This document shows, piece by piece, positions 2,673 to 16,537 of a stretch of 32,000 nt of DNA. Within the stretch, counting starts at the first letter, position 1, and the number at the start of each line of letters is the position of its first letter. The DNA comes from Cupriavidus necator (GTDB lineage: Bacteria > Pseudomonadota > Gammaproteobacteria > Burkholderiales > Burkholderiaceae): assembly GCF_016127575.1 (NCBI RefSeq), contig NZ_CP066018.1, positions 1,590,001-1,622,000 of the forward strand, read 5' to 3'. The notes below the pieces were generated by a model. That model was not told where the DNA came from. It searched no databases and saw nothing but the letters and a program-made list of their open reading frames with translations. The position numbers and the translations under genes are program-made.

Positions 2673-2732
2673 CTGTGGAGAAAGCTGTGGAACCGGCTGT
2701 GGAAAGCGCTGTGCATAACGCTGTGGAGATCT
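2673..2732. repeat. Five head-to-tail 12-bp units: CTGTGGAGAAAG / CTGTGGAACCGG / CTGTGGAAAGCG / CTGTGCATAACG / CTGTGGAGATCT
   Basis: The CTGTG(G/C)A cores start at 2673, 2685, 2697, 2709 and 2721, an exact 12-bp period. The array begins 13 bp upstream of the lipoprotein start. Each unit contains a 9-mer resembling the reverse DnaA box TGTGNAWAA, scoring 8/9, 7/9, 8/9, 9/9 and 7/9 by my count. Confidence 0.85.
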
Positions 2733-2995
2733 GCGGCGCGGCGGACGGGCAAGCATGGAGGCCCCATGTGGCACGGCACCCGGTCCGGCCTGTCACGGCC
2801 ACGGCTGGACGCCTGTTGGAAGACTTCGCGCGCGATCGCTCCGGCGACGGATTCAGCGATGCGGCGGATACTGCAGAAAATCAGCTTACCGCTGTGGATA
2901 ACGTCCCCCGCCTGGCGCTCGCCAGCGCCCTCGGGCACCGGGCGGCGGCATGGCGGGGTCTGACAATTCGGGCCCTGCAGTGCAGCCCGTCAGGC

Positions 2996-3274
2996 TCACT
3001 GGTTGACAGCGTCCTTGAACTTCTGGCCAGCCTTGAACTTCACGGTCTTGGCTGCTTCGACCTTGATTTCTTCGCCGGTACGCGGGTTGCGCGCCATGCG
3101 CTCGCCACGCTCGCCCTTGCTGAACGTGCCAAAGCCGATGAGGCTCAGCGTTTCGCCCTTGGCCACGGCGTCCATGATGGCCGACAGGGTCACGTTCAGT
3201 GCCTGTTCCGCCTTGGACTTGGTCAGACCGTCCACCCCGGCTGCGATAGCGTCGATCAGTTCGGTTTTCGTCAT
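2996..3274 (-). CDS. hupB: HU-family nucleoid-associated DNA-binding protein
   Basis: 92 aa: MTKTELIDAIA...FGTFSKGERGERMARNPRTGEEIKVEAAKTVKFKAGQKFKDAV. It shows the classic HU/IHF fold signature, including the RNPxTGEEI arm. Confidence 0.95.
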   Translation of the reverse strand: MTKTELIDAIAAGVDGLTKSKAEQALNVTLSAIMDAVAKGETLSLIGFGTFSKGERGERMARNPRTGEEIKVEAAKTVKFKAGQKFKDAVNQ

Positions 3275-3815
3275 GCTTCACTCCGTATCGAGTTGATAAA
3301 ACACAGGCGTCCGCATGCCGGGCGGCCTGACTGGCACCGCTCCGGCAAAGACACCGCGGGCCACATGATACCGTGTCGGACAAGGCGCACCGGGAACAGA
3401 TTGTTACCTGGCAGTTTCCGCGAGGCCGCGCCAGGCTGGGCTTCGCGGCAAATCGACGCAGCTGGGTACAGCCATCGCAAGCCGCGGAAGGTGACGAAAG
3501 CGTCCTAAGCTGACAGGCAGGGGCCCCCAGGTCGCGCAGGCGAGATAGCGGGCGGGCCGCGTACCTAGCCTCTCACCCATCCCTCGCCAGAGGCCCTCAG
3601 AGGCCCTCTGCCCACGCGCAGGCGCATTGGACAGGGCTGGAGAGCTACTGACGGCCAGAAACGCTTGCAGGCGCTCTGGCAGCCTCGGAGGCGCAGACTG
3701 CACTATGTTGCATGTTGTCGGATCATTGGGCTGGCGGCGAACCCAGCCGCTATTCGGCGCATGCATGGCACCTTGCCGGGGCGGTTTACGAACCGGCTCC
3801 AGATCCTGCGGGCGG

Positions 3816-3864
3816 CGTATACGTGAAAGTCGGTGTGGTTGGGCGTATACGCCCGAGGTATACG
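3816..3864. repeat. Left CGTATACG module: CGTATACGTG-N15-GGGCGTATACG-N5-GGTATACG
   Basis: GTATAC hexamers lie at 3817, 3845 and 3858. GGCGTATACGCC (3843-3854) is a perfect 12-bp palindrome. Confidence 0.85.
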
Positions 3865-3980
3865 CCGAATCTTCAAATCCAAAACCACAAAGCTTCGCGC
3901 TATCGCGACGTTTACAGTCCCGGCCATTTGGATGATGCCTTGGGGGCATTCTTTTGCTGACGCCGTTGGTTCGTTCTTTC

Positions 3981-4048
3981 GGTTTACCTTCTTCTTTCAT
4001 GTATACAAATAGTAGTAGTAAGTAAACACCCGCCCCCGCTGTGGAAAA
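3981..4048. promoter_or_regulatory. AT-rich tract + TAGTAGTAGTAA run (4010-4021) + 11-nt pure G/C cluster (4029-4039) + consensus DnaA box TGTGGAAAA (4040-4048)
   Basis: Read directly: cttctttcatGTATACaaaTAGTAGTAGTAAGTAAACAcccgcccccgcTGTGGAAAA. The order and orientation (AT-rich, then G/C cluster, then TGTGGAWAA) parallel the DUE / R1-box junction of E. coli oriC. The 5'-TAG-3' repeats equal the 3'-GAT-5' DnaA-trio motif. Function is inferred only. Confidence 0.4.
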
Positions 4049-4074
4049 CCACGTAAACGTCTTTCGGTTCAACG

Positions 4075-4086
4075 GTTTACGTAAAC
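4075..4086. repeat. Perfect 12-bp palindrome GTTTACGTAAAC, part of a CG(G/T)TTTACG motif family
   Basis: GTTTAC occurs at 3784, 3910, 3982 and 4075. GTAAAC occurs at 4022, 4053, 4081 and 4262. Motif orientation flips around the AT-rich core near 4000-4020. Confidence 0.8.
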
Positions 4087-4221
4087 GAGAAGTGGTCGTA
4101 TCCAATGTTGGTCGAGGTGGATGACTCAACCATCCGGAGGAGGCCAGTGCCGCAAGCCCTCCGACTTATGCCTGAGGCATCCCCATGCCAGCCCCAGGCA
4201 GCCCACATCCAATCCGCGTGC

Positions 4222-4252
4222 TTGTCCACAGTTCGAGGCGGGGTTATCCACA
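4222..4252 (+). promoter_or_regulatory. Tandem, same-orientation DnaA-box-like 9-mers TTGTCCACA (4222-4230) and TTATCCACA (4244-4252)
   Basis: The second is a perfect match to the TTATCCACA consensus and the first matches 8/9. Their starts are 22 bp apart. Confidence 0.5.
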
Positions 4253-4298
4253 CGCGGGGACGTAAACGGGCGTCGCGGCTGAGGCGGAAATGGGGTGC

Positions 4299-4370
4299 CG
4301 TATACGTGTCAATCGCAACCAGGGCGTATACGGTGAGGTCGCCGGAAAGGGGTGTTACGTATACGTGTCA
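4299..4370. repeat. Right CGTATACG module: CGTATACGTGTCA-N11-GGGCGTATACG-N25-CGTATACGTGTCA
   Basis: GTATAC lies at 4300, 4326 and 4359. The 13-nt direct repeat CGTATACGTGTCA sits at 4299-4311 and 4358-4370. The CGTATACGTG-N13-GGGCGTATACG arrangement mirrors the left module as a direct repeat about 483 bp away. Confidence 0.85.
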
Positions 4371-4458
4371 CGGTTGCACCGGTATCATCCCCGATCGCGC
4401 CGGAACGGCCGGCACAGCGGGCCACTCAGGCAAACAGGCGACGAGCACGGAAAGGCAA

Positions 4459-4974
4459 ATGGCGGACAAGGCAAAGCGCAAGGCAGCGGACGAGGGCAAG
4501 AAGAAGACGGCGAGCGACCGGATCGAGGTGCGCCAGTCAGGCGTGCACGGCAAGGGCGTCTATGCGATCGGCCAGATCGCCGAAGGCGAACGCGTGATCG
4601 AGTACAAGGGCGAGCACATTTCGTGGAAGAAGGCGCTGGAGCGCCATCCGCACGATCCCAGCGATCCCAACCACACTTTCTACTTCAGCCTGGACGACGG
4701 CAGCGTCATCGACGCCAAGTACGGCGGTAACCGCGCGCGCTGGATCAACCACGCCTGCGAACCCAACTGCGAAGCGCGCGAGAAAAAGGGCCGCGTCTTC
4801 ATCCACGCGCTGCGCGACATTGCCGAGGGCGAGGAGTTGTTCTACGACTACGGCCTGGTCATCGACGCGCGCTATACCGCCAAGCTGAAGAAGGAGTTCG
4901 AGTGCCGCTGCGGCAGCCCGCAATGCCGCGGCACCATGCTGGCACCGAAAGAAAAGAAGAAGAAGGCCAAGTAA
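4459..4974 (+). CDS. SET-domain protein (putative protein-lysine N-methyltransferase) with Lys-rich N- and C-terminal tails
   Basis: I start the gene at ATG 4459, preceded by GGAAAGG. This gives 171 aa: MADKAKRKAADEGKKK...VRQSGVHGKGVYA...RWINHACEPNC...GEELFYDYG...CRCGSPQCRG...KEKKKKAK. The SET signatures NHxCxPN and ELxYDY and a post-SET CxCxxxxC are present. The 4105-4458 part of the ORF looks non-coding. Confidence 0.85.
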   Translation: MADKAKRKAADEGKKKTASDRIEVRQSGVHGKGVYAIGQIAEGERVIEYKGEHISWKKALERHPHDPSDPNHTFYFSLDDGSVIDAKYGGNRARWINHACEPNCEAREKKGRVFIHALRDIAEGEELFYDYGLVIDARYTAKLKKEFECRCGSPQCRGTMLAPKEKKKKAK

Positions 4975-15836: not shown

Positions 15837-16537
15837 GCTGGCTGGCAATGATGATGCCGGCACGCGTGCGCGAGTGGTGGCTCGCGGGCACGCTGGCCGG
15901 CATCATCTACGGCGCGCTGCTGGTGCAGGTGGCGATCGAGCTGCCTGAAGGCGCGCCGCTGACCGGGCATATCGCCATGCAGCCCGCGTGGAAGACCGCG
16001 ATGGCGCTGCTGCTGGCACGCGCCGCGTGGTTCCACCGGCCGCTGGTTGAGCGCCGCTGGCTGGTCACTGCGCTGCTGTTCTCGGCCCTGGGCGACCTCC
16101 TGCTGGCGCTGCCGACGCTGACGTTTTCGTTCATGGGCGGGCTTGGCGCCTTTTTGCTCGCGCACCTGGCCTACCTGCGCGTGCTGGTGCCGCTGGCGGG
16201 CGACACGCGTCCGCACCGGCTGATTGCGTGCGGCGCCATGCTGGGCGTGGCGGGCACCATGCTGGGCCGCTTCTGGCCCAATATGGGCCCGCTGACGGTG
16301 CCGGTGGCGGTATACGTGGGCGTGCTTGCGGCGATGGCCTGCAGCGCGCTGGTGGCGCGCCTGCCCACGCCGCTGGCGGCGCTGGGGGCGCTGTGCTTTG
16401 CCGCATCGGACATGATGATCGGCATCGCGCGCTTCCTGGTGCCGTTCGAATCTTTCCAGCTTGGCATCTGGTGGACCTACGCCGCGGCCCAGGTGCTGCT
16501 GGTGGCGGGCATCGTGGCGGGACGCGAGCAGGCATGA
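15833..16537 (+). CDS. YhhN-family membrane protein (lysoplasmalogenase-like)
   Basis: 234 aa and polytopic. YhhN-like segments include SALGDLLLAL, FLLAHLAYL and FAASDMMIG. Its start overlaps the upstream stop as ATGA (15833-15836), and its stop overlaps the pbpC start as ATGA (16534-16537). Confidence 0.75.
   Translation: MSWLAMMMPARVREWWLAGTLAGIIYGALLVQVAIELPEGAPLTGHIAMQPAWKTAMALLLARAAWFHRPLVERRWLVTALLFSALGDLLLALPTLTFSFMGGLGAFLLAHLAYLRVLVPLAGDTRPHRLIACGAMLGVAGTMLGRFWPNMGPLTVPVAVYVGVLAAMACSALVARLPTPLAALGALCFAASDMMIGIARFLVPFESFQLGIWWTYAAAQVLLVAGIVAGREQA

Follow-up and report, generated by a model that had tools for sequence, protein, structure and literature searches.

Why should a short palindrome crowd into a single intergenic region of a bacterial chromosome? 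The question is raised by a 32-kb stretch of chromosome 1 of Cupriavidus necator (NCBI RefSeq assembly GCF_016127575.1, contig NZ_CP066018.1, positions 1,590,001 to 1,622,000 of the forward strand), referred to here as the window and numbered from its first letter. The octamer CGTATACG occurs five times in it, and all five copies fall within 3816-4365, in the 1,184-bp gap between hupB and a gene encoding a SET-domain protein. A preliminary description of the sequence had offered two explanations: cooperative binding of a dimeric protein or, by analogy with GATC sites at the Escherichia coli origin, a site of methylation or sequestration. The analysis presented here develops the second of these. 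The octamers are a subset of a 15-site cluster of the methylation motif GTWWAC at the probable replication origin (oriC) of chromosome 1, and the hupB-SET intergenic region itself is likely to be that origin.

A cluster of GTWWAC sites between hupB and SET

The five octamers begin at 3816, 3844, 4299, 4325 and 4358, as first described; the window holds no other copy, and dinucleotide-preserving shuffles, which predict 0.07 copies, never reached five. The embedded hexamer GTATAC is found nine times, seven of them inside 3817-4364, with the remaining two at 16310 and 21879, where they had already been noticed. Direct reading of the sequence also bore out two related sites, GGTATACG at 3857 and TGTATACA at 4000, a 13-nt direct repeat, CGTATACGTGTCA, at 4299 and 4358, and the -10-like hexamer TATCAT at 4383-4388, which lies 17 nt beyond the last octamer. 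The same region contains three CGTAAACG and several GTTTAC that had gone uncounted, and with these included the recurring unit is a degenerate hexamer, GTWWAC. Each CGTATACG contains GTATAC, so all five copies fit this hexamer, and the 15 sites of the cluster match it on both strands.

In the window as a whole, GTWWAC occurs 18 times where shuffles predict 3.6, and 15 of these sites are packed into 3784-4364 (starts 3784, 3817, 3845, 3858, 3910, 3982, 4001, 4022, 4053, 4075, 4081, 4262, 4300, 4326 and 4359), which leaves three sites, and no CGTATACG, for the other 31 kb. When the 581-bp segment alone (GC content 0.55) was shuffled, 0.9 sites were expected and no more than five were obtained in 2000 shuffles, compared with the 15 observed; overall, the observed counts were matched by none of 100 whole-window and none of 2000 local shuffles. 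Because the local shuffles remain far below 15 sites, the lower GC content, or AT-richness, of the region does not explain the enrichment.

Relatives of the locus were found by a genome search with the SET protein, which yielded 14 other Cupriavidus species, several Ralstonia and more distant Burkholderiales, so that comparisons within Cupriavidus cover 15 sequences including this genome. Every Cupriavidus species carries 12-20 GTWWAC sites at the locus, nearly all in the ~1 kb upstream of SET. In the 14 other species, 210 sites fall in 13.8 kb of such upstream sequence (15.2 per kb), compared with nine in ~100 kb of flanking DNA (0.09 per kb), an enrichment of ~170-fold. The preliminary description had named two outcomes that would count against it, namely abundance of the motif elsewhere, as for a dispersed repeat of the repetitive extragenic palindromic (REP) type, and absence from orthologous intergenic regions. 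The motif proved rare both in the rest of the window and in the flanks of the relatives, it was found in the orthologous intergenic regions, and the window counts together with 0.09 sites per kb in the flanks do not correspond to the many scattered copies of a REP-type repeat.

The same comparison identifies the unit on which selection acts. Across species, CGTATACC is found 52 times and CGTATACG 50 times; the positions flanking GTWWAC carry at most 0.37 bits of information, and a C at position -1 is equally common, at about 50%, in sites outside the cluster. Since CGTATACC is as frequent as CGTATACG and the flanks are uninformative, the unit under selection is GTWWAC, and the octamer is rejected as a functional unit. 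With regard to the W positions, the 225 cluster sites (3784-4364 of the window together with loci L001-L014, those of the 14 relatives) comprise 127 GTATAC, 92 GTAAAC/GTTTAC and only six GTTAAC. GTTAAC makes up 11 of the 71 sites outside clusters and is thus disfavoured inside them.

GTWWAC is the N6-methyladenine (m6A) target of an orphan beta-class N6-adenine methyltransferase that is conserved across Burkholderiaceae and known as the M.BceJIV/BCAM0992 family. Deletion of BCAM0992 (M.BceJIV) in Burkholderia cenocepacia abolishes GTWWAC methylation (PMC7364216). For C. necator H16, 95.3% of GTWWAC sites have been detected as methylated (PMC6742796), and in this species the motif is assigned to the orphan methyltransferase H16_A2613 (E6A55_RS13360), the product of a core gene (PMC12645576; PMC12291605) located outside the window. 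In Ralstonia solanacearum, only five loci have more than one conserved methylated GTWWAC, and the upstream region shared by the SET and HU genes is among them (PMC5390034). The 15 sites of the cluster presumably carry m6A as well, judging from the species-wide methylation in C. necator and that of the Ralstonia locus.

Origin-like architecture and its conservation

DnaA boxes were counted as matches with at most one mismatch. Six of the eight matches in the window lie in 2674-4252, where 1.2 would be expected over the entire window, and the 41 kb spanning the GC-skew switch contains no further cluster of boxes. Three of the six belong to the GTWWAC region: TTTTCCACA at 4040-4048 on the minus strand, with one mismatch, and two plus-strand boxes in 4222-4252, namely TTGTCCACA at 4222 and the perfect TTATCCACA at 4244. 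No Cupriavidus or Ralstonia locus departs from the spacings of 182 nt and 22 nt between these boxes, and the trio spans 213 nt (4040-4252). The 4040 box retains its position and orientation in all of these loci and is perfect in several species; in species related to C. metallidurans, all three boxes are perfect.

The minus-strand box faces the repeats TAG TAG TAG TAA (TAGTAGTAGTAA, 4010-4021, plus strand), which resemble DnaA trios in that they read 3'-GAT-5' toward the box, and a GC-rich spacer, ACCCGCCCCCGC (4028-4039), lies between the two. In Ralstonia, this spacer contains a degenerate second DnaA box, GGTGGATAT. The repeats are embedded in an AT-rich block at 3960-4027, a candidate unwinding region that is near-invariant in Cupriavidus and Ralstonia and holds the GTWWAC sites at 3982, 4001 and 4022; the 60-bp window of lowest GC content in the intergenic region (0.32) starts at 3966. 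To the right of the box, the core continues through 4053-4086 with the site at 4053 and an abutting pair, GTTTACGTAAAC, at 4075 and 4081. The order of box, spacer, TAG repeats and AT-rich DNA is conserved in Cupriavidus, Ralstonia, Paraburkholderia and Trinickia, and in three of these four genera GTWWAC sites stand on both sides of the trio-like repeats. The same elements, namely a DnaA box, a spacer, 3'-GAT-5' trios and AT-rich DNA, form the basal unwinding system (BUS) of bacterial origins (PMC8287927). The locus in this way combines a DnaA-box cluster, as expected of an oriC, with an AT-rich unwinding element beside a trio-bearing box and an over-representation of methylation sites (~170-fold over the flanks in the 14 species), as would be expected under origin sequestration of the Dam/SeqA type.

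Conservation distinguishes a fixed core from variable arms. Six core GTWWAC sites keep their exact distance to a DnaA box across Cupriavidus, and where a site is conserved in position, its G, T, A and C are retained throughout, while the two W bases alone change, always between A and T. The site at 4053 (+13), for example, reads GTAAAC in nine, GTATAC in five and GTTAAC in one of the 15 sequences. Variation restricted to the W bases matches the degenerate specificity of a GTWWAC methyltransferase. The arms are less constrained, with positions that shift between species and with 3-9 sites on the left and 0-5 on the right. The left arm in the window (3784-3915) has five sites and corresponds to the left module of the preliminary description plus GTTTAC at 3784 and 3910; the right arm (4262-4364), with sites at 4262, 4300, 4326 and 4359, corresponds to its right module. 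The modules are real in this genome, CGTATACGTG-N15-GGGCGTATACG at 3816-3851 and CGTATACGTG-N13-GGGCGTATACG at 4299-4332, but their exact positions are not kept in other Cupriavidus, where it is the site number per arm that persists. Conserved direct-repeat modules are rejected on these grounds, the similarity of modules 483 bp apart being lineage-specific.

Ralstonia has 2-3 GTWWAC sites in a 640-bp region. The loci retrieved here carry two, at the equivalents of 3982 and 4001, and none of them lacks the GTTTAC and GTATAC that adjoin the TAG repeats. In Paraburkholderia and Trinickia (locus L029, 670-905; also L033, L044 and L057), the same core appears as GTTTACGTATAC, TAGTAGTA and GTTAAC, followed by CTGTGGACAA and, after another ~170 nt, by a perfect DnaA box. 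In these two genera the core is separated from SET, ~3 kb downstream of it, by three other open reading frames (ORFs), and it does not adjoin hupB.

The position of the locus on the chromosome points in the same direction. Over 11.6 kb the window is identical to CP196472.1, a 4.05-Mb record of C. necator chromosome 1, which places the locus ~80 kb from the end of that record, at about 3.97 Mb; it is ~80 kb from dnaA and near the GC-skew switch. On the right side of the region, GC skew is positive (+0.04 to +0.05); on the left side, around ntrYX in C. metallidurans, it is negative (-0.02 to -0.05). In C. metallidurans CH34, the GC-skew transition has been described ~90 kb from dnaA, directly after a stretch of 213 nt that holds three perfect DnaA boxes (PMC2864759). 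Matched on this published description, that region agrees with the three-box span reported here in its length of 213 nt and in its distance of ~80-100 kb from dnaA; the CH34 paper makes no mention of methylation sites there. Given the box trio of fixed spacing, the TAG repeats beside a DnaA box, the AT-rich block, the distance of ~80 kb from dnaA and the nearby skew switch, the region is most likely oriC, even though the skew minimum is displaced from it by 2-14 kb.

Proposed function and competing explanations

The methylation and sequestration idea of the preliminary description is favoured in its first part, in that a documented m6A motif surrounds DnaA boxes, trio-like repeats and an AT-rich block; sequestration, in turn, is a supposition. 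To our knowledge, SeqA is confined to some gammaproteobacteria. By analogy with GATC/Dam and GANTC/CcrM, the GTWWAC sites would be fully methylated before initiation, and passage of the replication fork would leave them hemimethylated. Such transient hemimethylation could label an origin that has only just fired, until full methylation is re-established by the methyltransferase, and in the meantime re-initiation may be delayed or local transcription altered. The signal might be conveyed by a reader protein for the mark, by changed DnaA binding or duplex melting through the sites at 3982, 4001 and 4022 in the candidate unwinding region, or by the site over the SET -35 position. The M.BceJIV dimer holds two GTWWAC duplexes at once (PMC11380664), and since it does so, looping or bridging of the arms by a methyltransferase dimer is conceivable, although each methylation event is independent. 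A more specific proposal, which we regard as speculative and of low probability, is that Cupriavidus possesses a SeqA-independent system of origin licensing based on GTWWAC methylation, in which the lineage-specific expansion from 2-3 sites, as in Ralstonia, to 12-20 sites in two arms about the unwinding core would serve to recruit a protein that binds hemimethylated GTWWAC, or a methyltransferase dimer would bridge the arms, occluding the DnaA boxes after firing. We infer both the origin activity of the region and any regulatory consequence of its methylation.

Several observations weigh against an origin governed by GTWWAC methylation. In C. nantongensis, the cumulative skew minimum and the orientation switch of the FtsK-orienting polar sequences (KOPS) lie ~7-14 kb to the left of the boxes, and in an H16-like genome the skew remains slightly positive over the neighbouring 13 kb on the left, where one plus-strand KOPS also occurs. 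Overall, the displacement to the left amounts to 2-14 kb at a resolution of about 10 kb, the left flank having been assembled by chained protein look-ups, and gene differences between ntrYX and hupB among species may blur the skew signal. Ralstonia gets by with 2-3 sites, and a dense cluster is consequently not required for the region to function. We know of no reader of hemimethylated GTWWAC and of no SeqA-type reader for M.BceJIV-family methylation, and no search for one was made here. The spacer between box and trio-like repeats is 18 nt long, above the 16-nt limit of the published BUS search (PMC8287927). Furthermore, B. cenocepacia without the GTWWAC methyltransferase is viable and has no defect in exponential growth (PMC7364216; bioRxiv 10.1101/2020.03.09.983379), so any role in replication would be only modulatory. 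Finally, no experimental mapping of an origin in Cupriavidus or Ralstonia was found in the literature.

One alternative holds that the GTWWAC sites serve promoter control only, making the transcription of hupB and SET sensitive to methylation, with the DnaA boxes incidental or acting as transcriptional operators and the region not an origin. Erill et al. (PMC5390034) read the R. solanacearum orthologue in terms of promoters, with the sites overlapping predicted -35 elements on both strands and the origin placed at dnaA, and methylated GTWWAC near the -35 or -10 represses some B. cenocepacia genes (PMC7364216). In the window, GTATAC at 4359-4364 stands 18 nt upstream of the conserved TATCAT on the plus strand, and the two form a candidate methylation-sensitive SET promoter (4359-4388). 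The earlier suggestion that this last site overlies the SET -35 position is plausible insofar as the site and GGTATCAT are kept in most Cupriavidus, but a strict scan of 2900-4600 found no sigma-70 consensus promoter, and the overlap with a promoter hence remains a suggestion. One or two sites would suffice for such control, yet Cupriavidus keeps 12-20 over ~600 bp, and the best conserved of them border the TAG repeats and the DnaA box of the AT-rich core, at a distance of 380-470 bp from the start of SET and ~700 bp from hupB. AT-rich unwinding regions, moreover, easily yield false promoter predictions. Promoter control as the sole function therefore seems rather unlikely, while promoter control as such is compatible with an origin and does not exclude it.

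The operator array envisaged in the preliminary description would require a dimeric protein that binds the palindrome (C)GTATAC(G) regardless of methylation, cooperatively on both arms and with the core looped out. The over-use of GTATAC noted above and the placement of the arms on either side of the core are in line with such an array, and the site spacings do cluster near 19-22, 31-34, 42 and 48-53 nt. These peaks, however, come mostly from the shared core, and with R at 0.25-0.30 for periods of 9.5-12 nt no single period emerges, for which reason helical phasing of the sites is also rejected. No evidence was obtained for a protein that binds the octamer: the flanks are unconserved, of low information and alike at off-cluster sites, the conserved positions swap freely among GTAAAC, GTATAC and GTTAAC, and the motif is identical to the documented specificity of a methyltransferase, all of which renders an operator array improbable. 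A further alternative is a locus for DnaA titration or reactivation resembling datA or DARS, or a relic origin near the true one, at which the boxes and methylation sites would regulate DnaA activity without being the place of unwinding. The displaced skew and KOPS switch fits that idea, as does the description of CH34 by Janssen et al. (PMC2864759), who also note DnaA boxes ahead of dnaA itself and a third cluster at another place. Box, spacer, TAG repeats and AT-rich block, on the other hand, form the arrangement of an unwinding element that four genera conserve, and the 41 kb around the skew switch offers no other box cluster, so that a DnaA-titrating or relic locus is judged very improbable. 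Chance, local base composition or a dispersed REP-type repeat could appeal only to the lower GC content of the region. Counts that no shuffle reaches, the near absence of the motif from the rest of the window, the conservation of an enriched cluster in 14 species and the lack of any Rfam, plasmid or repeat-family match reduce the probability of such an origin of the cluster to a negligible level.

Relation to known systems and neighbouring features

The closest counterpart is the R. solanacearum SET/HU region (RS_RS16825/RS_RS16830; PMC5390034), an orthologous locus that shares the flanking genes, the motif and the core sites, and whose methylation has been shown experimentally in two strains. 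It differs in having 2-3 sites in 640 bp, compared with 15 in 1.18 kb and additional left and right arms in C. necator, and its description draws no connection between the locus and DnaA boxes or an origin. In B. cenocepacia J2315, whose methyltransferase belongs to the same family, GTWWAC lies between DnaA boxes in all origins (PMC7364216; PMC4948915). Those origins are enriched in CACAG, the motif of a type III system, and contain few GTWWAC sites, whereas CACAG methylation has not been reported for C. necator H16, in which only GTWWAC is amplified. The 9-mer and 7-mer repeats of the B. cenocepacia origins are likewise not enriched in C. necator: ATCCGCGCW shows no enrichment, and the single copy of CTGTGCA overlaps a DnaA-like box at 2709. 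The Paraburkholderia and Trinickia loci share with C. necator the succession of core GTWWAC, TAG repeats, GTWWAC and DnaA box.

Among better-known systems, the E. coli oriC is crowded with GATC sites, which are subject to Dam methylation and SeqA sequestration. Both loci show a short palindromic adenine-methylation motif that is strongly enriched, also in the AT-rich unwinding region and beside DnaA boxes, and in both cases the methyltransferase is an orphan enzyme; the motifs differ, Dam is an alpha-class enzyme whereas the M.BceJIV family is beta-class, and the B. cenocepacia enzyme is dispensable. GANTC/CcrM in Caulobacter also involves a beta-class orphan adenine methyltransferase with sites in the origin and in cell-cycle promoters. 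CcrM, however, is cell-cycle regulated and important for viability, and we know of nothing comparable for the GTWWAC enzyme. As in the basal unwinding system (PMC8287927), a DnaA box faces three or more 3'-GAT-5' trios, beyond which the DNA is AT-rich. Apart from the longer Cupriavidus spacer and the degenerate second box that Ralstonia keeps in it, the difference is that GTWWAC directly flanks the trios, a feature outside the published definition.

The motif, its methyltransferase, the hypermethylated SET/HU region of Ralstonia, the occurrence of GTWWAC in the origins of B. cenocepacia and the DnaA boxes where the skew of CH34 switches have all been published. As far as the literature was searched, it has not been stated that these belong to one conserved element, that methylation sites flank the trios of an unwinding-system architecture, or that the cluster is expanded five- to ten-fold in Cupriavidus. 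The comparison suggests that the Ralstonia hypermethylated region, the C. metallidurans box trio and the origin GTWWAC sites of B. cenocepacia represent the same element, the chromosome-1 origin of Burkholderiaceae. Cupriavidus carries its most extreme version and is the best organism in which to test the control of replication timing by a beta-class orphan methyltransferase beyond Dam and CcrM, as well as the best place to look for a protein that reads the mark. For the engineering of C. necator, the locus marks the likely oriC fragment, and DNA carrying it from hosts that lack GTWWAC methylation would be expected to behave differently.

The genes that border the region are divergent. On the left, hupB (2996-3274, minus strand) is an ORF for an HU-type DNA-binding protein (PF00216, Bac_DNA_binding); on the right, the ORF at 4459-4974 on the plus strand encodes the SET-domain protein (PF00856). 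The two seem to share a -10-like element: a 9-mer, CGGTATCAT, occurs at 3365-3373 before hupB and, in inverted orientation, at 4380-4388 before SET, and is invariant in the Cupriavidus alignment. Beyond hupB lies a second DnaA-box cluster (2674-2901, minus strand), with TTCTCCACA at 2674, TTATGCACA at 2710 and a perfect TTATCCACA at 2893. It holds no GTWWAC sites, is present in all 14 Cupriavidus loci and is absent in Ralstonia; hupB thereby has a box cluster on either side, an arrangement known from bipartite origins.

Within the intergenic region, a search against Rfam gave no match, either for the whole window at gathering thresholds or for 3200-4500 at E<=1. A plasmid-derived origin or mobile element was rejected, blastn of 3700-4460 against PLSDB having returned no match, and so was a conserved small ORF: an 83-aa gene is annotated there in one assembly, and the cross-species alignment is rich in indels at that place. 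An exact tandem duplication of CAGAGGCCCT occupies 3588-3607 in the hupB-proximal part. A terminator-like hairpin with a T-rich tail is found on the plus strand at 3934-3950, just to the left of the AT-rich block, and such matches are no commoner in this region than in shuffled sequence.

A variable gene island directly adjoins the putative origin, between ntrYX and hupB. C. necator and C. nantongensis carry LysE, MIP, LamB, DctP, EamA and DinB genes in this interval, to the left of the window, and C. metallidurans carries SSF, amidase, LysR and Tct genes; in two C. necator strains, a group II intron reverse transcriptase is located there. In Ralstonia sp. 25C (CP196737.1), ntrX is ~190 kb from the SET locus, with many unannotated genes and H-NS-like ones in between, a pattern that points to a large insertion or rearrangement beside the putative origin in this strain.

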